Source of the DNA: Chiloscyllium plagiosum
Lineage: Eukaryota
Reading direction: 5' to 3'
NCBI RefSeq assembly: GCF_004010195.1
Contig: NC_057719.1
Location: forward strand, 5,146,412-5,210,411
Length of the DNA stretch: 64,000 bases
The position numbers and the translations under genes are program-made. Within the stretch, counting starts at the first letter, position 1; the number at the start of each line of letters is the position of its first letter. The notes beneath the pieces are model-generated. The model ran no database searches. It saw nothing but the letters and a program-made list of their open reading frames with translations, and had not been told where the DNA came from. Below, in pieces: positions 5,316 to 63,104 of this stretch.

Positions 5316-6614
5316 ATTTAGGAATAAGGAAATAATTTGTGTGCAGGGGTTTTCCAAGGCAGTGATAGATAGCTGTGTGCAAAGAGAAATTGGGGGGGGT
5401 GGCGGATGTTTGGTATCAGAGTCAAGATTAGAATGCTGCTGGAAAAGCACAGCAGGTCAGGCAGCATCTGAGGAGCAGGAATTGTTATGTTGTGGGAAGG
5501 TGATGGGATATTGGAGATGATGATAGGTAGATTGGAGGGGATGGAGTATGGGGGAGATGATGCACAGAAATGGAGATATCTACGGTAAGGAGTTATCCAG
5601 TTAGGACAGAGATGAGGAGGAATTTCTTCGTACAACGTGTAATGAATCTATGGAATCCACCTAATCCGCACATCTATGGACTGTGGGAGGAAACCGGAGT
5701 AAACCCACACAGACACGGGAAGAATGGGCAAACTCTACACAGTCACCTGAGGATGGAATCGTACCCGGGTCCCTGGCACCATGAGGCAGCAGTGCTAACC
5801 ACTGAGCCACCATGCTGCCCCTTAGTGACATACTTTGTTTTATAATGCTCCTGTTAAGCGCTTTTGTTGTGTTAAAGGCAAAGTAAAATTGTTGGATGAG
5901 ACCATCCTGACTTACAATGTCACCGCCATCTCCACGTCTTTGTTATTTTCAGCTGACTGAAATCACTGAAGCTATTGGAACACTATACATTATGTCTTCA
6001 CGGCAGTGTCTTTGTTACCTCCTAAATGATTCTGCAGTAGTCAAAGTGTATTTTACCAACAGCATTTTATTTACACTCTGATGCTGCATACAGTGTTAAA
6101 AGGTATGGCACTGGAAAAGCACAGCAGGTCAGGCAGCATCCGAGGAGCAGGAGAGTCGACATTTTGAGCATAAGCCCTTCATTATTCCTGATGATCTCCA
6201 GCATCTGCAGTCCTCGCTTTCTCCTCATTGATGTTGCATACAGTCATTGAGCTACACTAGTTCAGGGTGTTTCCTCTATTAGGTTTCCCTTACCTCTCTG
6301 TCCTAGTCATGGGATGATACATCACCATTCTACCAGGAACCTGTGGGCTGATTCTATTAAACCATTACCCCACAGGCAACAAGAGCAGGTCTGAGTCTAA
6401 ATCAATATCTCTGAAATCTCAAGCATCGCAGCTCTGTAAGGACTCACCAAAATGTGAACTTATTACCTCTTCTGGGCAACTAGGGTGGACAATAACTTGA
6501 CTTTGCCAACATCACCTATCGTTGTAACAATGCTGCTCCTTTAACAAGGTTATATTGTCCTTGGCTTTGTAGAGGGTTGTAAAGGCAAAGGTTCTGATAT
6601 TTCTGGAAATATCT
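5102..6614 (+). repeat. Copy 1 of ~1.5-kb near-identical direct duplication (copy 2 at 22931-24442)
   Basis: Direct comparison; matching ORFs at 5570 and 23399 (offset 17829). Confidence 0.95.
6098..6227. mobile_element. Family A fold-back element, internally deleted (duplicated at ~23926-24053)
   Basis: Minus arm GCACTGGAAAAGCACAGCAGG...GCCCTTCAT joined to CCTGATGA and the tail TCTCCAGCATCTGCAGTCCTCGCTTTCTCCT. Confidence 0.7.
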
Positions 6615-8092: not shown

Positions 8093-8306
8093 GTGTTGAA
8101 AAATGTGTTGCTGGAAAAACACAGCAGGCCAGGCAGCATCCGAGGAGCAGGAGAATCGACGTTTCGGGCATAAGCTCTTCTTCAGGAACCTTATGCCCAA
8201 AACGTCGATTCTCCTGCTCCTTGGATGCTGCCTGGCCTGCTGTGTTTTTCCAGCAACACATTTTTCAACTCTGGTCTCCAGCATCTGCAGTCCTCACTTT
8301 CTCCTA
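8093..8306. mobile_element. Family A fold-back element with 14-bp TSD
   Basis: TSD GTAATGTACTTCTA at 8079-8092 and 8307-8320; inverted arms; minus-strand core CTGAAGA...GAAACGTC. Confidence 0.85.
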
Positions 8307-8492: not shown

Positions 8493-8730
8493 CCTGTTGT
8501 TTAATACAGGCTAGCAACTAATTATAGATTACACTGATCAGATGGACTTTGTTACTAAGATGTTGAGGAGACCTAAAACAAGGGTTTTCACTCTTCACTC
8601 TGAATCTGTTTTGCTTTCCTCCCATCCATATTTGTACGACATAATCACGTTATAATTTGGTCACCAAAGTTAATTCTTTCATGACCATTGACATATACCA
8701 TAAGAACATTAGATATATGATCTGAAGTAG

Positions 8731-9014
8731 GGATTAGAGTGTTTCTGGAAAAGCACAGCAGGTCAGACAGCATCCAAGGAGCAGGAAAATCGATGTTTTG
8801 AGTAAAAGTTCTTCATCAGGAATTCCTCCACTATCACCTGATGAAGGAGCGGCGCTCCGAAAGCTAGTGCTTCCAAATAAACCTGTTGGACTATAACCTG
8901 GTGTTGTGTGATTTTTAACTTTGTACACCCCAGTCCAACACCGGCATCTCCAAATCATGACCACTCTAATCTAGGCTCTGATCTTCAGCATCTGCAGTCC
9001 TCACTTTCGCCTAG
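8731..9014. mobile_element. Family A element with 12-bp TSD, carrying a nested family B unit
   Basis: TSD GATCTGAAGTAG at 8719-8730 and 9015-9026; unrelated sequence at ~8825-8963 in the centre. Confidence 0.8.
8835..8869 (+). ncRNA. Minimal type-I hammerhead ribozyme-like motif (family B)
   Basis: Stem I CAC/GTG; core CTGATGA; extra A; stem II GGAGC-GGC-GCTCC; GAAA; palindromic AGCT stem III; predicted cleavage after CTA (8866). Confidence 0.75.
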
Positions 9015-10754
9015 GATCTGAAGTAGCCCATTCAGCCCATGCAGTCTGTTCCGCCATTCAGTGAGATCATGGCTGCCCTGATAACCCTCAACTCCACAAC
9101 CCTGCCTTTGCCCTTGATTCCCATATGGATTAAAAATCTATCTTGAAATTACTCAACAGACTCGCCTCTACAGCCCACTGCGGTAAAGAATTCCACAGGT
9201 TCGCAACACACTGAGACAAGAAATTATACAACAATGGTTAAACATCAGCTATCTCCTACCACACAGCCACATTCCTATCAGTCATAGAGTCATGGAGTCA
9301 GTGGTATGTTATTGATTCCATGAATTCCAACTTTAGCTGAGAATCTGGTATGAGGGACGAAGAAACTCTGCCCTTTACGTGATATTGCAGGCACCAGGGG
9401 ACAAAAGTGGGAAATGAGAGGAAGTAATTTGAATGCAGCAAGTTGCAATGGTAGCTGAGATGACCAATAATTTGGAAATGGTTTGGATTGGACCCTTGAA
9501 AAAACTCAACTTGCAGGGCTATGGAGAGGAATGGGGAAGGGAGTGTGACTCCCCTGAGAAAACATGACGGGGTGAATGTGACACTATGGCTTTATCAAAT
9601 GCCTTCTGGAAATACATATAACATCCAGGGACATTGCTCTGTCCAGTTACTCAACTCTTCAGAAATTTCATTCAGCTTTATCAGGCATGACATAATATTT
9701 ACAACTTCATGCTAGCTCTGTCTGAGCAGCTGAAAAATTTTCAAGGCGCAATATTTTCAAAATGCAACCGAAAAATGTTCACTCTGTTGTTCCATTATAA
9801 TGTTTTGAAACCAGGTGTTAGACTAACTGGTCCATGTTGTCCTGGCCTCCCCCTCTCTCTCTTTCCCACCTTTCCTAGCTAGTAAAGTGACAAATGTAAT
9901 TTTCTAGTGTTCAGGTACAAGTTTTCAAATTTAGCAGTACAGTTTTCTAATCTAAAGGTACAGTGTCCTAATCCAATAGTTTTAGAACTGAAAATGTTTG
10001 GCAAGTTAAAAAATTTAATTTAAGATTAAACATTTATAATCTTTAAAATGGACACTTTCTGGGGCTGGCAAATTTAACCAATCATTAGTGCCTTTGTTTT
10101 CTTCATTAATATTAGTTTGATTATATTAATGTTGGTGAGTCACCGTCCCTAATACAATATGGGTTTCACGGAATTTTACAGTGCAGAATGAGGCCATTCG
10201 GCCCATCATGTCTGTTTCTTTGAGAATTCTGGAATGTTGATCTCTCCCTTCAGTGTAAATACTGAGCAATTACTCCATATGTCCACCATTTCCTTACTGT
10301 GATTGACAATGTCACCATTATAAGTTTCCTGAGGGTGTCCTAGACCTCCCACTCTCCTCATTGTCAGAATTGTTTCTGTTCCCAAACTTCCAAGATTGTT
10401 GCACACTCCATTTTGGAAGCTGACAATGTATGTTTTTCATCCTTTGCCTTTCTCTGTGTTTTTCCTCTCAGCAGGATCTGCACTTCGCTTTTTGTCTGCA
10501 TTTTTGTGGGCTTATTCTTTTAGTTTGATGTTGCCCCTTACCTCCACTGATCCATGATTGTTTTTTAATCAAGAAAATTGCTTTTCCTGCAGGGGTATTA
10601 AAAGGCATTGCATCACATTAAATGTAGTTTTTTGAACAGCCCCCCCTCCCCCTCCCCCCCACCAAACCATCATTTCAGAAGTTTACCCATTGAGGGATTT
10701 ACTGTCATTGTGGATAATCTTTGTCTCTTCCCACAAAGGTCAACCTTATCTAGG

Positions 10755-13039: not shown

Positions 13040-14640
13040 TTACAAGGTTCAATGCAATCTTCAGCCAGAACTGGTAAGTGAATGATCCATCTCGGCCTCC
13101 TTTAGTTGTGCCCCCCATCACAGAACCCAGTTTGATTCATTCCACCTGATATCAGGAAAAGGTTGATATTCTAGAATAGTACTGAAGACGTGTGCTCCAG
13201 AACTTGCCGCCCCCCCCTAGCCAAGCTCTTTCAGTACAGTTACAACACTGGCATCTACCCGACAATGTGGAAAATTGCCCGGGTGTGTCCTGTACACAAA
13301 AAGCAGGAGAAATTCAACCTGGCCAATTCCTGCCCAATCGGACCACTCTCCATCATCAGGAAAGTGATGGGAGGGGTCAGCAATAGTGCTATCAGGCAGC
13401 ACCTGCTCAGCAATAGCAATAGTGCTATCAGGCAGCACCTGCTCAGCAATAACCTGCTCAGTGACGCCCAGTTTGGGTTCAGCCAGGGTCACTCAGCTCC
13501 TGACCTCATCACAGCCTTGGGTCAAACATGGACAAAAGAGCTGAATTCCAGAGGGGAAGGGAGAGTGACAGCCCTTGACATCAAGACCATATTTGACCGA
13601 GCGGGTCATCAAGGAGCCCCAGCAAAACTGGAATCAATGGGAATCTGGGGGATAATTAAATCATGCCGGGCACATAGGAAGATAGTTTTTAGAGGTCAGG
13701 CACCTCATCTCTCCAGGAGTTCCTCAGGCTAGTGCTCTAGGCCCAAGCATCTCCAGCTGCTTCATCAATGACCATTATAAGGTCAGAAGTGCGGATGTTC
13801 ACTGATGATTATACCATTCACAACTCCTTAAATACTGAAGCAGTCGGTAGCCAAATGCAACAAGATCTGGGTTTGGACTAACAAGTGGCAAGTAACATTT
13901 ATGCCACACTAATGTCAGGGATTTCCAGCAAAATACAATCTAACCACTGCCCCATGAGAGTTAATCGCATTTCCATTCTGAAAAAGCCCCCTAACACATT
14001 CAACATTCTGGACGTTATTGTTAACCAGAAACTGAAGGGGACTCACCAATAACTACAGTGGCTGCAAAAGCAGGTCAGAAGCTGTAGCAAATAACTCACC
14101 TCCTGACACATCCCGCAGACCACTTGCCATCTACGAGTCACAAGTCAGGAGTGTGATGGAATACGCACCTCTTGCCTGGACGGTTGCACCTCCAACAACA
14201 CTCAAAAACCTTGACACCATCCAGGACAAAGCAGCCCGTTTGATTGACAAGCATCCATTCCATCCATCAGATGCTAGTGTGTACCATCTACAAGATGCAC
14301 TGCAGAAATTCACCAAAGGTCCTCAGACAGCACCTTCCAAACCCACAACCACTTCTATCTAGAAGGACAAGACTGGCAGATACATGGGATCACTACCATT
14401 TGACAGTTCCCTCCAAACCAGTCACCATTCTGATTTTGAAATATATTGCTGTTCCTTTGCTGTTGCTGAGTCAAACTCCTGGAATTCCCTCCCTAACAGC
14501 ATTGTGGGTCTATGTACAGGACATGGACTGCAGTAGTTCAAGAAGACAGCTCACCACTACCTTCTCAAGGGGCACGTAGGGATGGGCAATAAATGCTGGC
14601 CCAGCCAATGACACCCACATCCCATAAATGAATAAAAAAA
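13040..14640 (+). mobile_element. Decayed non-LTR retrotransposon (CR1/L2-group RT, distinct from the HER1-like CR1s)
   Basis: ORF 13190-13732 with PLAKLFQ...WKIARVCPVHKK...QFGF...ALDIKTIFDR; MEYAPLAW; tail ATGAATAAAAAAA. Confidence 0.85.
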
Positions 14641-16199: not shown

Positions 16200-18170
16200 T
16201 TCCAGAGCTCATCGTTAGCCTCTAGCTTGTTTTCTTCACTATACTGCTCTTTTAAAACATTCTCCCCTGCCTTGTCCATCCTTTCCTCCAACAATACTTA
16301 TAAGGAACTTGGATCTTTGATAGTGCTGGGAAATCCTAATCAGCTGCCTTCTGGCCTGATCTCCTCAGAAGGTACCTCCTGTATCTTTCCCTAGTTTCCC
16401 TCCTGTTTCCCCTCAGACCCTCTCCAAGCTCATTTTATTCATTCAATCTACCTTCTTGATCCTACTCTCACTGAACTGATAACATCCAATATCTTTCTTG
16501 GTCGCTATCACAGCCACTATTGTAATTAGTTCTCTCTCTTCAAAAGTTGTCTCTCTCTGTCTCTCTCTATCTCTCTCTATCTCGCTCTATCTCTCCTTCA
16601 ACTCTGCTGTCAATACTTCAGTCACACCAAACAAAAAAAGCTCTTAACCCTGATCCCCATCACCCAACCATATTCCCCCATTGCCAACCTGCCTATCCTT
16701 TCAAAGATCTTGGGATGTCACCCCACCAATTCATTCCCATGATTTGAATCCCTCCAATAAGGTTTCTGGCCCATGACAGGACCAAATAGCTCTTATCTAA
16801 GTAGCAAATGATATTCTCATTGTTGTGATGAAGGTGAGCTTTCGCTCTTTGTCCTCTTGGTCCAGTCTTCGGCCTTTGACATGGTTGACCATTAGGAGAC
16901 AGCGAGGACTGCAGATGCTGGAGATCAGAGTCTAGAGTGTGGTGCTGGAAAAGCACAGCAGGTCAGGTAGCATCCGAGGAGCAGGAGAGTTGATGTTTTG
17001 GGCCGGAGCCCTGATGAAGGATACTGTCTGACCTTGCTGTGCTTTTCCAGCAACACACTCTCAACTCGCAGTTGACCATTACCACATCTTCAGTGCCTCT
17101 TCACTGCAGCCCAGTGGAACTGCTCTCCTACTCCATTCTCATCTGTTTAATTAATTGTGATGTGTTCTCTCTCCACACCATTTCCTCTGGAGTTCCCTCA
17201 AGAATCCACTATTCGTCTCCTCCTATTTCTCATCTACATTCCATCCCTCAATGACATCATCCAAGGGCATGGTGTTCCTTTCCCCATGACCTCCTTCCAC
17301 ATCCAGGTCCACCTCTCTTGGTTCCTCCACTGTTACTGAATGATCAGATTGCTTCCCAGACATCCAATACTGGGTGAGCTGACATATCTTTCAATTAAAT
17401 ATGTGGGACATCAAAGTAACTGTCTTCAATCTCTGTTCTACACTCTTTTCACTGGCAACTTACTCCATCTGTGAGCCCGGCAGATACTTAACCAATCCGT
17501 TCTCAATCTTGGTGTCAAATCTAACCTTGAGATGAACTTCCAACTTCATATGTGTGTCATCACTAAGACCACCACTTCCCATTTCTGTAACATCACCTGC
17601 CTTCTTTCCTCTCTCAGTTCATCTGCTGCTGAAACCCTCATTGTGCCTCTTGGGATTGGCTAACTCCGGCACACTCCTGGCTGCTCTGTCATATTCTTTC
17701 CTCTGTAAACTTAAAGTCCTTCCAAATCTCACAGTAAATTCCATTCCCCTACCGTTCCTATCCTTGCTGACCTGCATTGTCAAACCACATTTGCATTTTA
17801 AAATGCTATCCCTGTCTTCAAAGTGTCTGTAACCTTGTCCCTCCCCATCCGTGTTGCCTACCGTCACCCTCCCAGCTCTCTGCCTGGCTCTAACTTGGGC
17901 CTTTTGACTATCCCAGATCTCAATCACCTTCGGTAGCCATGCCAACAGTTACCTGGGCCCTGAGCTCTGCAATTCTCTCCCTAACCTTCTCCACATCGTT
18001 CTCACTCCACAGTCATTGAAACCTACCCCTTTGACCAAGCTTTTGGTCACCTGTCCTAATATCACTTTTGTCATTCTTTGCCATGTTTTGTTTTATGTTT
18101 CAATGAGGCACCTTGGAAGTTGTCACTTTTTGCAAGGTGATATATCAATGCAGGTTGATGTTGTAGTAAA
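16200..18170 (+). mobile_element. Old, highly diverged L2-like LINE remnant
   Basis: C/T-rich strand; remnants such as SSGVP and LNDIIQGHGVPF; L2-like 3' end TATATCAATGCAGGTTGATGTTG. Confidence 0.5.
16895..17070. mobile_element. Family A fold-back element with 11-bp TSD
   Basis: TSD GTTGACCATTA at 16884-16894 and 17071-17081. Confidence 0.8.
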
Positions 18171-18869: not shown

Positions 18870-19900
18870 AATGTTAGAATCGATCAGAAATGAAGCAATA
18901 AATGGTCTCTTGGAGCAACTGATTGGATTTGGCCTAGTCAGCATGGATTAGTGAGTGGAAAATTATGTTTGATGAACTGGTTGAAGAATTTTGAAGGGAG
19001 TTAACAGATGAGTTGACACATATGACTTTCAGAGCTGAAAATGTGTTGCTGGAAAAGCGCAGCAGGTCGGGCAGCATCCAAGGAGCAGAAGAATCGACGT
19101 TTTGGGCATGAGCCCTTCTTCAGGAATGAGCCCATTCCTGAAGAAGGGCTCATGCCCGAAACGTCATTCCTGAAGAAGGGCTCATGCCCGAAACGTCGAT
19201 TCTCCTGCTCCTTGGATGCTGCCTGACCTGCTGCGCTTTTCCAGCAACACATTTTCAGCTCTGATCTCCAGCATCTGCAGTCCTCACTTTCCCCACATAT
19301 GACTTTCAACAAAGTTCCTCCCAAGAGATTGGTTAGAAACATTAAAGCACACAGAATAGGAGGCAAAGTGCTGGCATGGATTAAGCATTGACTATCAGAC
19401 AGAAAACAGAGAATAACGAATACATGAGTCATTCTCACATTGACAGACTGTGACTAGTGGGGTACCACAAGGATCAGTACCCCAGCCCCAGCTGATCAAA
19501 ATATAGATCAATGATTTGGATCTGGGGAATGAACATTTCAATGTTTGTGGATGATACAAAACTGAGCAGGAACGTGTGTTGTGATGAAGAAGTAAAATGT
19601 TTTCAAAAAGATTTTGACAGGCTCAGTGAATAGGAAAGAAGATGGCAGATGGAATACAATGTGGAAAATGTGAGATTATTCATGATGGTAGGAAGACCAA
19701 TTGTGCAGGATATTTCTTAAATAGTAAGAAGTTAGATAGTGTAGATGTCACAAAGGTGTCCTTGTCAATAGGTCATTGAAGGCTAACATGCAGGTGCAGT
19801 GAGCTGGAAGGCTAATGGAATGTTAGCCTTTATCGCAAGAAGATTTCAGTACAGCAGCAGTGAAGGCTTGCTTCATTTGTATAAGAGCCTGATTAGACTG
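18870..19900 (+). mobile_element. Decayed CR1 RT fragment, interrupted by a family A element
   Basis: Remnants of TSGVPQGSV, DDTKL and WQMEYNVE. Confidence 0.7.
19032..19293. mobile_element. Family A fold-back element with tandem hammerhead-like cores and 15-bp TSD
   Basis: TSD CACATATGACTTTCA at 19017-19031 and 19294-19308; 32-bp tandem repeat 19134-19165/19166-19197. Confidence 0.9.
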
Positions 19901-22932: not shown

Positions 22933-24442
22933 CATGGATTTGTTCCAGGTGCTCTGAGTTTCCTCCCAAAGTCCGAAGATGTGCAAGGTAGGTGGACTGG
23001 CCATGGTAAATTGCCCATAGTGTCTAGGGATGTGCTAGCTAGGTGGGTTAGCCACGGGGAGTGCAGGGTAACAGGGACGGGGTGGGATCTTTAGAGGTCA
23101 GTGTTGACTGAATGGGCAGCTTCCATACTGTAGGAGATTCTATGATTTAGGAATAAGGAAATAATTTGTGTGCAGTGTTTTCCAAGGCAGTGATAGATAG
23201 CTGTGTGCAAAGAGAAATTGGGAGGGGTGGGGGGATGTTTGGTATCAGAGTCAAGATTAGAGTGCTGCTGGAAAAGCACAGCAGGTCAGGCAGCATCTGA
23301 GGAGCAGGAATTGTTATGTTGTGGGAAGGAGATGGGATATTGGAGTTGATGATAGGTAGATTGGAGGGGATGGAGTATGGGGGAGATGATGCACAGAAAT
23401 GGAGATATCTACGGTAAGGAGTTATCCAGTTAGGACAGAGATGAGGAGGAATTTCTTCGTACAACGTGTAATGAATCTATGGAATCCACCTAATCCGCAC
23501 ATCTATGGACTGTGGGAGGAAACCAGAGTAAACCCACACAGACACGGGAAGAATGGGCAAACTCTACACAGTCACCTGAGGATGGAATCGTACCCGGGTC
23601 CCTGGCACCATGAGGCAGCAGTGCTAACCACTGAGCCACCATGCTGCCCCTTAGTGACATACTTTGTTTTATAATGCTCCTGTTAAGCGCTTTTGTTGTG
23701 TTAAAGGCAAAGTAAAATTGTTGGATGAGACCATCCTGACTTACAATGTCACCGCCATCTCCACGTCTTTGTTATTTTCAGCTGACTGAAATCACTGAAG
23801 CTATTGGAACACTATACATTATGTCTTCACGGCAGTGTCTTTGTTACCTCCTAAATGATTCTGCAGTAGTCAAAGTGTATTTTACCAACAGCATTTTATT
23901 TACACTCTGATGCTGCAAAAGTGTTAAAAGGTATGGCACTGGAAAAGCACAGCAGGTCAGGCAGCATCCGAGGAGCAGGAGAGTCGACATTTTGAGCATA
24001 AGCCCTTCATTATTCCTGATGATCTCCAGCATCTGCAGTCCTCGCTTTCTCCTCATTGATGTTGCATACAGTCATTGAGCTACACTAGTTCAGGGTGTTT
24101 CCTCTATTAGGTTTCCCTTACCTCTCTGTCCTAGTCATGGGATGATACATCACCATTCTACCAGGAGCCTGTGGGCTGATTCTATTAAACCATTACCCCA
24201 CAGGCAACGAGAGCAGGTCTGAGTCTAGATCAATATTTCTGAAATCTCAAGCATCGCAGCTCTGTAAGGACTCACCAAAATATGAACTTATTACCTCTTC
24301 TGGGCAACTAGGGTGGACAATAACTTGACTTTGCCAACATCACCTATCGTTGTAACGATGCTGCTCCTTTAACAAGGTTATATTGTCCTTGGCTTTGTAG
24401 AGGGTTGTAAAGGCAAAGGTTTTGATATTTCTAGAATTATCT
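22931..24442 (+). repeat. Copy 2 of the ~1.5-kb duplication
   Basis: Near-identical to 5102-6614; begins mid-SINE. Confidence 0.95.
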
Positions 24443-30720: not shown

Positions 30721-30930
30721 CTGAAAATGTATTGCTGGAAAAGCGCAGCAGGTCAGGCAGCATCCAAGGAGCAGGAGAATCGACGTTTCAGGCATGAGTC
30801 CTTCTTCAGGAAAGGCTCATGCCCGAAATGTCGATTCTCCTGCTCCTTGGATGCTGCCTGACCTGCTGCGCTTTTCCAGCAACACATTTTCAGCCCTGAT
30901 CTCCAGCATCTGCAGTTCTCACTTTCTTCC
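30721..30930. mobile_element. Family A fold-back element with 14-bp TSD (one mismatch)
   Basis: TAAGTACATGAATA 30707-30720 / TAAATACATGAATA 30931-30944. Confidence 0.85.
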
Positions 30931-32502: not shown

Positions 32503-34290
32503 AGTCATAGAATCATACGGCATGGATACAGACTCTTTGGTCCAACTTGTCCATGCTGACCAGATATCCTAAACTGACTTACTCCCATTTGCCAGTACTT
32601 GGCTAAAATCCCTCCAAACCCTTCCTATTTCTAATCCAAACTGCTAAATCACCCTCAATCCCATGCCTCCGCATTTTCTCCAGCAGTCTACCATGTGGAA
32701 CCTTATCAAAGGCTTTACTGAAATCCATATACACCACGTCAACTGCCCTCCCCTCATCCACATGCTTGGTCACCTTCTCAAAAACCTCAATGAGGTTTAT
32801 GAGACATGACCTGCCCTTGACAAAACCATGTTGACTATCTCCAATCAAATTGATGCTTGCTAAATGATTATAAATCTGATCTCTTATAATCCTTTCCAAA
32901 ACTTCTCCTACAACACACGTAAGGCTTACTGGTCTATAATTGCCTGGGTTATCTCTACTGCCCTACTTGAATAAGAACCCAACATTTGCAATCCTCCATT
33001 TCTCTGGTACTAAATCTGTAGTCAATGACGACTTAAAGATCAAGGCCAAAGGCTCCGCCACCTCCTCCCTAACTTCCCAGAGAATCCTCGGATAAATCCC
33101 ATCCAGTCCAGGGGATTTTTCTACTTTCACACGTTCTAGAATTGATAACACCTCTTCCTTACTAACCTTAATCCTTTCTAGTCTAATATCTCGTACCTCA
33201 TTCTTCTCCTCTACAATATTATCCTTTTGCTGAGTGAAAACAGACGAGAAATATTCATTTAGCACCTCTCTGATCTCCACAGGGTCCACACTCAACTTTC
33301 CACTTCTGTCTTTGACTGGACCTATTCCTATCCTAGTTATCCTTTTATTCCTCACATACCTAGAGAAAGCTCTAGGGTTCTCCTTTATTCTACTTGCTAA
33401 AGATTGCTCACGTCTCCTCCTTGCTCTTCTTAACTCTCTCTTTAAATCCTTCCCAGCTAATCTGTAACTCTCCATTGCCTCATCTCAACTATCTCATCTC
33501 AACGTAACATAAGCCTTTGCTTAACAAGAGATGCAATTTCTTTAGTAAACCACGGTTCCCTCACCTTAATGCTTCTTCCCTGCCTGACAGGGACATACCT
33601 ATCAAGGACACACAATAGTTGTTCCTTAAACCAGCTCCACATTTCGATTCGTACCCATCCCCTGCATTTTGCTACCATTCTATGCATCCCCAAGTCTTGC
33701 CTAATCACATTATAATTGCTCTTCCCCCATCTATAACTCTTGCCCTGTGGCATGTAACTATCCTCTCCATCACAAAACTAATCGTAACCGAATTATGGTC
33801 ACTCTTTCCAAAATGCTCACCTACCACTAAATCAAACACCTGGCCTGGTTCATTACCACGTACCAGATCCAGTGTGGCCTGCCCTTGTCAGCCCTTCGAC
33901 ATGCTGTGTCAGGGAGCCCACCTGCACCCATTGGACAAAAACTGATCCATCCAACATATTAGAGTGAAAGCATTTCCAGTCAATGTTGGGGAAGTTAAGG
34001 TCCCCCATAATGACCGGGGAGAAAGTGAGGTCTGCAGATGCTGGAGATCAGAGATGGAAAGGTGTTGCTGTAAAAGCGCAGCAGGTCAGGCAGCATCTAG
34101 GGAACAGGAGAATCGACGTTTCAGGCATTAGCTCTAGGGTTCACCTGAAGAAGGGCTAATGCCCGAAACGTCGATTCTCCTGTTCCCTAGATGCTGCCTG
34201 ACCTGCTGCGCTTTTCCAGCAACACATTTCCACCCCCATAATGACCACCCTGGTCCTTTCACTCCTACCCAGAATTGTTTTGCCAATCCT
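32503..34290 (-). mobile_element. CR1 LINE (EN-linker-RT), internally deleted and joined to its 3' end
   Basis: ORFs 33499-33753, 32963-33475 (KSPGLDGIYPRIL) and 32603-32899 (QHGFVKGRSCL, YMDFSKAFDKVPH). Confidence 0.9.
34016..34232. mobile_element. Family A fold-back element with 14-bp TSD
   Basis: TSD CCCCCATAATGACC at 34002-34015 and 34233-34246; intact + core CTGAAGA-A-GGGC-TAAT-GCCC-GAAACGTC. Confidence 0.9.
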
Positions 34291-37120: not shown

Positions 37121-37347
37121 GGTCAAGAGTGTGGAGTTGGAAAAGCATAGCAGTCAGGCAGCATCCGAGGAGCAGGAAAATCGACGTTTCAGGCAGAAGC
37201 CCTTCATCAAAAAGCCCTTCCTGATGAAGGGCTTTCATCCGAAACGTAAATTTTTCTGGACCTCGGATGCTGCCTGACCTGCTGTGCTTTTCCAGCACCA
37301 CACTCTTGACTCTAATCTCCAGCATCTGCAGTCCTCACTTTCGCCTT
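37121..37347. mobile_element. Family A fold-back element with 15-bp TSD; a further arm fragment at ~37366-37448
   Basis: TSD ACACGTAGAATTTGG at 37106-37120 and 37348-37362. Confidence 0.85.
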
Positions 37348-51366: not shown

Positions 51367-51590
51367 AAAGGAGAAAGTGAGGACTGCAGATGCTGGAGAT
51401 CAGAGCTGAAAATGTGTTGCTGGAAAAGCGCAGCAGGTCAGGCAGCATCCAGGGAACAGGAGAATCGACGTTTCGGGCATAAGCCCTTCTTCAGGATTCC
51501 TGAAGAAGGGCTTATGCCCGAAACGTCGATTCTCCTGTTCCCTGGATGCTGCCTGACCTGCTGCGCTTTTCCAGCAACACATTTTCAGCT
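51367..51590. mobile_element. Youngest family A element: perfect 93-bp inverted repeat plus one-sided tail, ~15-bp TSD
   Basis: Arms 51404-51496 and 51498-51590 are exact reverse complements; TSD CTTAAAGTTGACAAG at 51352-51366 and 51589-51603. Confidence 0.95.
51494..51533 (+). ncRNA. Minimal hammerhead ribozyme-like motif (family A type copy; mirror copy on - strand)
   Basis: CTGAAGA 51500-51506, A, GGGC-TTAT-GCCC, GAAA 51520-51523, ACGT palindrome, GTC triplet ending at 51527; short imperfect stem I. Confidence 0.7.
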
Positions 51591-58283: not shown

Positions 58284-58475
58284 TGAGGAGAAAGTGAGGT
58301 CTGCAGATGCTGGAGATCAGAGCTGAAAATGTGTTGCTGGAAAAGCGCAGCAGGTCAGGCAGCATCCAGGGAACAGGAGAATTCCTGAAGAAGGGCTTAT
58401 GCCCGAAACGTCGATTCTCCTGTTCCCTGGATGCTGCCTGACCTGCTGCACTTTTCCAGCAACACATTTTCAGCC
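58284..58475. mobile_element. Family A fold-back element with a single unpaired core, 14-bp TSD
   Basis: TSD AAGGTGCAAAACTT at 58270-58283 and 58476-58489; core 58385-58412. Confidence 0.9.
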
Positions 58476-61940: not shown

Positions 61941-62075
61941 CTAGAAAATCTGCAATGGAAAAGAATTTGAAGAAATAATATCAGGACAAGTTTGATCCAA
62001 CAAGCAAGGCCATAGCTGGGAATCCAATGCACAAATAAGTTTATTTTGAAAGAAAATTTTGAGTTGTGTTGAACG

Positions 62076-63104
62076 ATGAGCAACTGTACTGTCGACCACA
62101 GTATCCACCAGATCCTGTTTCCCGCCGTCTACATTGGGGTCTTCATCATTGGCCTCCCGATTAACCTGCTGTCCCTGTATCACAGCTACCTACAGATCAG
62201 GCAGAAGAATGAGCTGGGAATCTATCTCTGTAATCTGACCATCTCAGACCTGTTGTACCTCCTTTCCTTACCTTTGTGGATTCAGTACATGCTGCAGCAC
62301 GATGACTGGCAATATTCTCGGGAACTTTGCATCTTCAGCGGTCTGCTCCTCTACCAGAATATTTACATCAGTATTGGCTTCCTCTGCTTCATTGCCATTA
62401 ATCGCTTCCTTGTTGTGGCTTACCCTCTGAAATTTAAATTCATACACAGCAGGAAGGCAGCTTTGCTCATCAGTATTCTCATCTGGCTCAAGGAGATAGC
62501 TGTCTGCACCATTTACATGGGCTCCAAGGTTCTCAGTAAAGACGAGGGGAATGATACCCTGTGTTTTGAACATTATCCTCTGCGCCTAAAGGACAGATAT
62601 TTAAATATTTACAAACTCTCCATTGGCTTCAGCCTCCCTTTGATATTATTGATCTACTCTTACTATAAGGTGTTGAGAGTTGTGCACAAAAGCCATGGAC
62701 TTGAAAGACAGCGGAAATTAAGAATAAAAAAATTGGTATCTGGGACAATCATCATTTTCCTGGCTTGCTTTGCCCCTTATCACATTTTCCTGATGGTTCG
62801 AAGCATATTTGAGTATGACTGTCCCTTTGCTGACAGTATTTTTGAGGTTTACCATTTTGGGCTCCTGCTGATGAGCTTAAACTGTGTGGCCGACCCTGTT
62901 TTGTACTGTTTCATATCACAGAGTTCCCAGAGCTGGTTAGCCAGGTTCCTGGATCCTGTTATCAATCTGCTTCCTTGTGGGAAAAAAGAAGAAATTGTGG
63001 CCCTTGAGATGAAGGGCAGCTCACCGCTTACAACTAAAACAAGTCTGTTACCTCAAAGACACCAGAAACAAGAAAAATATGAATACCAACACTCAAAGGT
63101 GTGA
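62076..63104 (+). CDS. GPR68: Proton-sensing class A GPCR, GPR68/OGR1-like (342 aa; ortholog versus paralog unresolved)
   Basis: Intact ORF with 7 hydrophobic segments; GPR68-like motifs CTVDHSIHQ, NELGIYLCNLT, LQHDDW, CFEHYP, CFAPYH and NCVADPVLYCF. Confidence 0.9.
   Translation: MSNCTVDHSIHQILFPAVYIGVFIIGLPINLLSLYHSYLQIRQKNELGIYLCNLTISDLLYLLSLPLWIQYMLQHDDWQYSRELCIFSGLLLYQNIYISIGFLCFIAINRFLVVAYPLKFKFIHSRKAALLISILIWLKEIAVCTIYMGSKVLSKDEGNDTLCFEHYPLRLKDRYLNIYKLSIGFSLPLILLIYSYYKVLRVVHKSHGLERQRKLRIKKLVSGTIIIFLACFAPYHIFLMVRSIFEYDCPFADSIFEVYHFGLLLMSLNCVADPVLYCFISQSSQSWLARFLDPVINLLPCGKKEEIVALEMKGSSPLTTKTSLLPQRHQKQEKYEYQHSKV

Follow-up and report, generated by a model that had tools for sequence, protein, structure and literature searches.

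Insertions of endonuclease-bearing Penelope-like elements are described as containing partial tandems, an adjacent inverted and 5'-truncated copy, a one-sided tail of 30-40 bp and a target-site duplication (TSD) (Arkhipova et al. 2013, PMC3846280; Craig et al. 2021, PMC8557442). The protein of the Anolis Poseidon element is reported to have two start sites for its reverse transcriptase (RT), both target strands being primed and extended in vitro (Frangieh et al. 2024, PMC11167929). The same study states that Poseidon ribozyme mutants insert normally in vitro and that no RNA-seq reads end at the cut site (PMC11167929). Metazoan Penelope-like elements carry a minimal hammerhead, or min-HHR, according to Cervera and De la Pena (2014, PMC4209133). 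Non-LTR retrozymes, derived from Penelope-like repeats, are presented as tandem units with a type I hammerhead by Li et al. (2026, 10.64898/2026.07.22.740005).

A first-pass annotation of the 64,000-nucleotide stretch analysed here (the window) had pointed to an exact 32-bp tandem repeat at 19134-19165 and 19166-19197, whose first unit stops at GTC, where the hammerhead is predicted to cut, and whose second unit restarts at the usual unit start, and had read it as the trace of a cleaved or religated RNA or of RT jumping at a cleaved end. We find that the repeat lies inside an insertion of the Penelope-like kind. It was probably formed during that insertion, by a slip-back onto a short stretch of matching sequence located at the predicted cut site, followed by a second copying of the unit head, a route for which RNA cleavage is unneeded.

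Structure of the insertion

The tandem forms the centre of a 262-bp head-to-head insertion at 19032-19293 that has a 15-bp TSD and a tail on one side (Table 1). The inverted 5'-truncated copy, the TSD and the one-sided 30-40-bp tail of Penelope-like insertions are all found there. Positions within the unit are counted from the A of ATTCC as position 1, with the predicted cut after position 32. The inverted and direct arms show 3 differences in 96 nt and are joined in an inverted repeat of 101 nt at 97%; the core of the inverted arm (19096-19123) carries one G>A change. Read from this inverted arm, the head of the unit is CTCATTCC, with TC common to the head and to GTC.

Direct comparison shows no difference between the two copies along their 32 nt. 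A period of 32 holds without a break over at most 33 nt, 19133-19165, the extra base being a shared C, and TRF reports 19133-19202 with a period of 32, 2.2 copies and a score of 131. The annotated repeat is thereby borne out, and so are the end of its first unit at the predicted GTC and the restart of the second at the usual place, 14 to 16 of the 27 arms in the window beginning at unit positions -2 to +2. The 1-nt ambiguity formerly assigned to the junction holds for the genomic copy, where the C is shared, but becomes 2 nt (TC) when the element's own head CTCATTCC is considered. Among the 21 TRF rows, perfect tandems with a period of at least 30 bp are the 32-bp tandem and one other, of 36 bp, at 13379-13451. 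The latter lies inside a LINE-like open frame, has no hammerhead link and serves as a background example.

The CC(C) filler between the arms may come from a 5-nt slip-back (ATGAG) onto loop II, which ranks first among re-annealing sites when the cDNA ends in ATGAG, or from untemplated C addition, a weak assignment that concerns 2-3 nt only; its last C also fits the head CATTCC. The host target (19309..19391) is presumably a CR1-like LINE, and a 54-aa piece of its translation gave nothing in Pfam. A 97-codon open frame over the insertion was treated as chance. The reading frame that by chance crosses the junction was used as a protein query, to reach further junctions through spurious predicted proteins, and returned no matches. 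Five motif patterns searched in six frames identified no parent open reading frame in the window. Elsewhere in the window, 62073-63101 (+) encodes an intronless 341-aa receptor of the rhodopsin family (PF00001, E 6.7e-46), which we take to resemble the proton-sensing GPR4/GPR65/GPR68 group.

Table 1. Features of the insertion that contains the 32-bp tandem, followed by the eight inverted pairs with an exact TSD in the window
Feature	Position	Strand	Basis or remark
Left TSD copy, 15 bp, CACATATGACTTTCA	19017..19031	.	identical to 19294-19308
Inverted arm of Penelope-like stub, unit positions -2 to 96, without tail	19032..19130	-	inverted-repeat and arm comparison
Filler CC(C) at arm-arm joint	19131..19133	.	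sequence
Extra copy of unit head, positions 1-32, 32 bp, ending at predicted cut site GTC	19134..19165	+	identity, TRF
Predicted core 1, in extra copy	19138-19165	+	its cut site without helix I
Direct arm, unit positions 1-128	19166..19293	+	unit comparison
Predicted core 2, in direct arm	19170-19197	+	predicted cut after 19197
Tail of direct arm, ~32 nt	about 19262-19293	+	strongest listed 3' loose ends of relatives at 19250-19255 and 19291
Right TSD copy, 15 bp, CACATATGACTTTCA	19294..19308	.	identical to 19017-19031
Host target, decayed LINE coding fragment, reading MTFNKVPPKRLVRNIKAHRIGGKVLAWIKH from the TSD onwards	19309..19391	+	translation
Inverted pair	8100-8301
Inverted pair	16898-17067
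Inverted pair	19032-19293		holds the 32-bp tandem
Inverted pair	30721-30926
Inverted pair	34021-34232
Inverted pair	37130-37342
Inverted pair	51373-51590
Inverted pair	58290-58474

Hammerhead cores and predicted folding

Six matches to the core pattern CTGANGAAGGGCTN{2,6}GCCCGAAACGTC occur in the window, whereas 100 shuffles gave an expectation of 0.00. In the tandem, the boxes CUGANGA and GAAA followed by NUH are found as CTGAAGA (19138-44), GAAA (19158-61) and GTC (19163-65), and again at +32. Further features of the minimal hammerhead are present: the extra base between 9 and 10.1 (A19145), the G10.1-C11.1 pair, a helix II of 4 bp (GGGC/GCCC) and, helix III being absent, palindromic 15.2-16.2 (ACGT at 19161-64 and 19193-96). 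The Rfam hammerhead families gave 0 matches at gathering score in the 64 kb; for minimal forms without helix III that score would be expected to lie out of reach.

At the second cut site (19197) a short helix I is present, composed of C-G, U-A, U.U and A-U. At the first (19165), 1.1 is an A opposite a C at 2.1 and the short helix I is lacking; the extra copy is thus predicted to carry a core but no cleavable site. Since site 1 lacks helix I, a cis dimer could use only core 1 with site 2, which together can form a 4-bp ACGU/ACGU helix III. In calculations restricted to secondary structure, adopting the active fold costs 8.3-8.4 kcal/mol relative to the ensemble for the isolated tandem and 64.6 kcal/mol for the whole insertion, where core 2 pairs with the inverted arm in a 101-bp hairpin. 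Of the earlier suggestion that the tandem places two cores in cis as a dimeric hammerhead would need, there remains one reciprocal ribozyme that can be drawn, but the other is without helix I and core 2 is paired in the hairpin. A functional cis dimer at 19134-19197 appears unlikely from these folds.

Other insertions of the unit in the window

BLAST of the unit against the window yielded 40 rows, parsed into 18 insertions after omission of a duplicate at 23939 and of short or other-family fragments. An exact TSD of 10-15 bp flanks eight inverted pairs, all of which (8/8) have the tail on a single arm; 357-535 (no TSD) and 6111-6225 (deleted arm) were not counted among them. The tail (~32 nt) may sit on either side in these pairs, which fits one RT start site per target strand. 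Arm starts (n=27) fall 25 times between positions -2 and 16, including two that are blurred by a palindrome yet stay inside this range, never at 33, once at 34 (58290-58382) and once at 49.

Irregular joints are found in other pairs too. At the joint 37183-37232, a slip-back repeats 10 nt at 37210-37219 (AAAAGCCCTT) and lands in loop II, and further arm-arm joints have fillers of 1-8 nt or overlaps of 1-3 nt. One insertion between ATCTGAAGTAG repeats, at 8720-9026, is an inter-family chimera, consisting of an inverted arm of the Penelope-like unit, ~120 nt of another hammerhead-like family (core near 8838-8866) and then the tail of the Penelope-like unit. Separately, about 5320-6225 and 23150-24053 are near-identical, including the same deleted inverted pair, and form a local segmental duplication ~17.8 kb apart.

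Relatives outside the window

In public collections the core pattern was found at 1 locus in metagenome contigs (L001, non-identical), 0 in viral contigs and 0 in prokaryote genomes. Positions 1-440 of this locus contain the end of an open reading frame with a weak GIY-YIG match (E 0.087, below the cut-off) and, ~110 nt later, the same core. Both inner pairs of its helix I are compensated (T-A, C-G), in a single comparison.

The contigs of four sequencing runs (X1, X4, X10 and X15, 4 of the 24 listed) were aligned to 19138-19347, giving 93,583, 107,014, 138,555 and 10,224 aligned records, respectively. Three of the runs are DNA-like and come from three organisms, and one is guessed to be an RNA run. 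The strongest listed loose ends are 3' ends at 19250-19255 and 19291 and 5' ends at 19164-19167 and 19259. Position 33 (19198) is absent among the 24 loose ends listed over the four runs, 915 more being outside the list.

Among the joints listed (141 more are outside the list, and some joints and loose ends were left out of the count), the best-supported returns to the head run from 19291 to 19164-19175; 19291>19166 is found in 27, 17, 19 and 0 contigs. Further returns to the head, in a single row each, leave from 19201, 19207, 19263, 19265, 19267, 19290 and 19294. The joints from 19291 to 19164-19175 correspond to whole-unit tail-to-head dimers and are seen in three organisms. Candidates for two-site dimer ribozymes are naturally to be sought among such dimers and not in the 32-bp tandem. 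In X10, a joint 19201>19166 with 12 letters between reaches a depth of 658, which suggests an amplified variant with two nearby cores.

An inversion joint at 19166/19198 (equivalently 19164/19200, given a 2-nt TC ambiguity) occurs in 1, 2, 6 and 0 contigs of X1, X4, X10 and X15, respectively. One arm thereby starts at position 33, where the predicted 3' cleavage product would begin; together with the 58290 arm at 34, the recurrence of this joint hints at cleavage in vivo. The seven listed opposite-strand joints besides 19255/19291 all have at least 32 bases between their ends, compared with at most 15 for most joints in the window. The 19166/19198 joint therefore stands at the edge of the listed range, where counts would be highest anyway, because listed ends are never closer than 32.

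The tandem junction itself, GTC/ATTCC (the slash marking the join), lay inside the reference and hence cannot surface as a joint in this comparison. No listed contig piece of the four runs spans it, the contigs being too fragmented in this repeat to show absence. An inserted G behind 19165 is likewise not listed, which carries no evidential weight since normal copies dominate the depth there. The depth of the left copy is ~21,500, 32,300, 134,900 and 166, against 16,100, 35,900, 60,000 and 396 expected, as a rough estimate, from CpG-decayed GTCA words (ratios of 1.33, 0.90, 2.25 and 0.42, X10 being at ~2x the estimate).

Origin of the tandem

The head (TCATTC) and the cut-site region (TC[G]ATTC) share a 6-nt match with one base looped out, arranged as 2+4. 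Position 32 is the only one of 117 acceptor positions with a gapped match of at least 5 to the head; exact matches of at least 2 nt are found for 22 of 100 distinct products. With DNA parameters, the duplex energy at position 32 ranks 2/35 for a cDNA ending at -1 (-3.0, versus -4.8 for loop II) and 6/39 for a cDNA ending at 0. Because of the 2-nt exact and 6-nt gapped matches, slip-back predicts the same junction without cleavage. Hence the view that RT jumped at a cleaved end is retained in part: a polymerase jump is the likeliest origin, but the cut is unneeded since the match predicts the same product. Judged from its sequence, this single tandem does not show that the ribozyme cut RNA. The chance of landing at position 32 without cleavage is estimated at a few percent per slip-back; several such chance cases would be expected across the 241 annotated windows of the genome, and a reader primed with the motif would select them.

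In the mechanism that we favour, the two target strands would be nicked 15 bp apart and each would prime a cDNA, one from the tail start and the other ~32 nt further in. Such two-strand priming fits the layout seen in the window because the tail is on one arm only in 8/8 pairs. Both cDNAs would extend to the head (CTCATTCC), whereupon the end of the tailed-arm cDNA (...GGAATGA) would re-anneal at UC[G]AUUC through 6 pairs around one bulged G or, alternatively, second-strand synthesis would restart via the shared TC. The first 32 bases would then be copied a second time, the other arm would gain CC(C) and the two ends would be joined at the shared C. The resulting copy would be a dead stub whose transcript folds as a long hairpin, not as a dimer ribozyme.

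Slip-back is supported in that stutters are normal at these joints, as seen in the repeat at 37210-37219, the fillers and the overlaps. Cleaved RNA does not seem to be the usual template, because 0/27 arms start at 33 and 19198 is absent among the loose ends listed. Returns to the head arise from many places, and the normal insertion of Poseidon ribozyme mutants in vitro, with no RNA-seq reads ending at the cut site (PMC11167929), also speaks for slip-back. Against slip-back, the ungapped ATTC match (4 nt), which is the stronger one, predicts a 33-bp duplication keeping the G, contrary to the observed product, which is without it. Moreover, along the gapped route a base would have to bulge out two bases from the primer end, pairing with loop II is favoured by 1.8 kcal/mol, and the recurrent 19166/19198 joint and the 58290-58382 arm starting at 34 also count against it.

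There is a modest chance that the second copy instead came from an end-to-end jump. A further RNA present in the particle would have undergone cutting at GUC, yielding a 5' product of 32-35 nt; on arriving at the head of the RNA that it had been copying, the RT would have clamped onto the terminal C or UC of this product and reverse-transcribed it. The junction falls exactly at C17, without the G that plain ATTC slippage keeps, but the gapped match yields the same product. Jumping between template ends on microhomology is documented for R2 RT (PMC4117753; in vivo, PMC3414825), and the Anolis Poseidon hammerhead is described as cutting with the element protein present, the protein being a predicted dimer (PMC11167929); no Penelope RT jump of this kind was found in the literature searched. 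The position-33 inversion joint in three organisms and the one arm at 34 would be accommodated as well, against which stand the 0/27 arms at 33 and, for the joint, its 2-nt TC ambiguity and its place at the edge of the listed range. Minimal hammerheads are in addition reported to cut poorly in vitro (PMC4209133), and their product bears a cyclic phosphate, which library protocols remove as a precaution before template jumping (PMC12239594).

Compared with slip-back during insertion, we consider it improbable that replication slippage or repair duplicated the 32 bp at the hairpin centre afterwards. Hairpin centres are unstable, the CATTC / C[G]ATTC match is present in the genomic copy, and the copies are identical with all CpGs kept, while the arms differ at 3/96. 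This identity is uninformative, since at the arm-arm divergence two 32-nt copies would show no difference with a probability of 0.36. Three observations argue against a later event: the start of the duplication coincides exactly with the end of the arm, the element head but not the genomic copy (CCCATTCC) contains the T of the 2-nt match, and perfect tandems of such size are rare in the window.

An assembly or consensus artefact at the palindrome centre is very improbable. It would agree with the 100% identity at a hairpin centre, the N gap in the window near 59.7-60.0 kb and the junction being spanned by no listed contig, but absence cannot be read from contigs as fragmented as these are in this repeat, the TSD is intact, the arms differ at 3 sites and neighbouring insertions show similar patchwork joints.

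Hammerhead ligation rejoins C17 to the G of GATTC and so restores GTC/GATTC. It is scarcely credible that the tandem records a circular or religated RNA of the retrozyme type or works as a dimer ribozyme in cis, in spite of the two cores 32 nt apart, the ACGU/ACGU helix III open to core 1 and cut site 2, the whole-unit tail-to-head dimers in relatives and the circular templates proposed for Penelope-like elements (PMC4209133), because ligation does not explain GTC/ATTCC at a unit head that is not a ribozyme-made end, cut site 1 is without helix I, the active fold is disfavoured in the secondary-structure calculations given above for both tandem and whole insertion, and there are two units only, the first truncated. 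The religation proposed in the first-pass annotation is accordingly abandoned.

Significance

The hammerhead motif and the insertion layout are already published. In the literature searched, which comprised main texts without supplements and few subscription papers, we found no account of a duplication that stops at the cut site of a Penelope hammerhead. A wider reading, which we hold to be rather unlikely, is that the Penelope hammerhead cuts in the insertion particle in vivo, the RT jumping onto the 5' product (GTC/ATTCC) and running off the 3' product (arms at 33, GAGAATC/ATTCC joint). If true, shark genomes with their very many copies would be a countable fossil record of minimal-hammerhead cleavage. 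Cutting in vivo and its purpose are the question at stake: minimal hammerheads cleave inefficiently in vitro (PMC4209133), and in vitro insertion can dispense with them (PMC11167929). If junctions at the cut site proved to be in excess across the genome, this would be direct fossil evidence of cutting; a single locus cannot supply it. The present locus provides the control for such a count: because the head matches the cut-site region (TCATTC versus TC[G]ATTC), a peak at GTC has to be set against three references, namely families without the match, loop II returns and the 33-bp product.

Comparison with known systems

In L1 twin priming, an inverted joint is produced from two primed strands. 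The end-to-end jumping of R2 RT resembles the events considered here in that a jump follows the RNA 5' end via short matches (PMC4117753 and PMC3414825), and in the R2 and L1 literature searched no description of a jump onto a hammerhead product was found. Both systems differ in enzyme class, and at the present locus both arms copy the same 3' stretch.

Non-LTR retrozymes, reportedly treated by Cervera and de la Pena in 2020, share with the tandem an arrangement of units each bearing a hammerhead core. The unit here is 32 bp, compared with a consensus range of 51-972 bp reported by Li et al. (10.64898/2026.07.22.740005), and there are two units, the first without a complete ribozyme, inside an inverted insertion with a TSD. 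The locus was rejected as a non-LTR retrozyme, since that class needs at least 2 consecutive units with a complete hammerhead (10.64898/2026.07.22.740005) and the first unit has no helix I. Of the double cleavage by which retrozymes would release circular RNA, the tandem offers at most one cleavable site.

With the min-HHR, as set out in PMC4209133, the core shares CUGANGA, the extra base between 9 and 10.1, G10.1-C11.1, GAAA, palindromic 15.2-16.2, the absence of helix III and a short helix I. Helix II is 4 bp here and 7-8 bp in Schistosoma, and helix I here is 2 bp plus 1. The extra copy differs from the min-HHR in being without helix I, and the two cores are 4 nt apart, so that a two-site dimer cannot form.

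A further likeness is to the Penelope-like insertions of the studies cited at the outset, which have in common with 19032-19293 the head-to-head arms, the TSD, the tail on one arm, a partial tandem at the inner joint and a hammerhead in the repeat. The insertion differs in comprising ~130 nt of the element only, with no open reading frame, and in its TSD of 15 bp compared with 8-10 bp in the rotifer examples. Its partial tandem, moreover, is limited to the 32 nt of the head, with the predicted cut site at its end.
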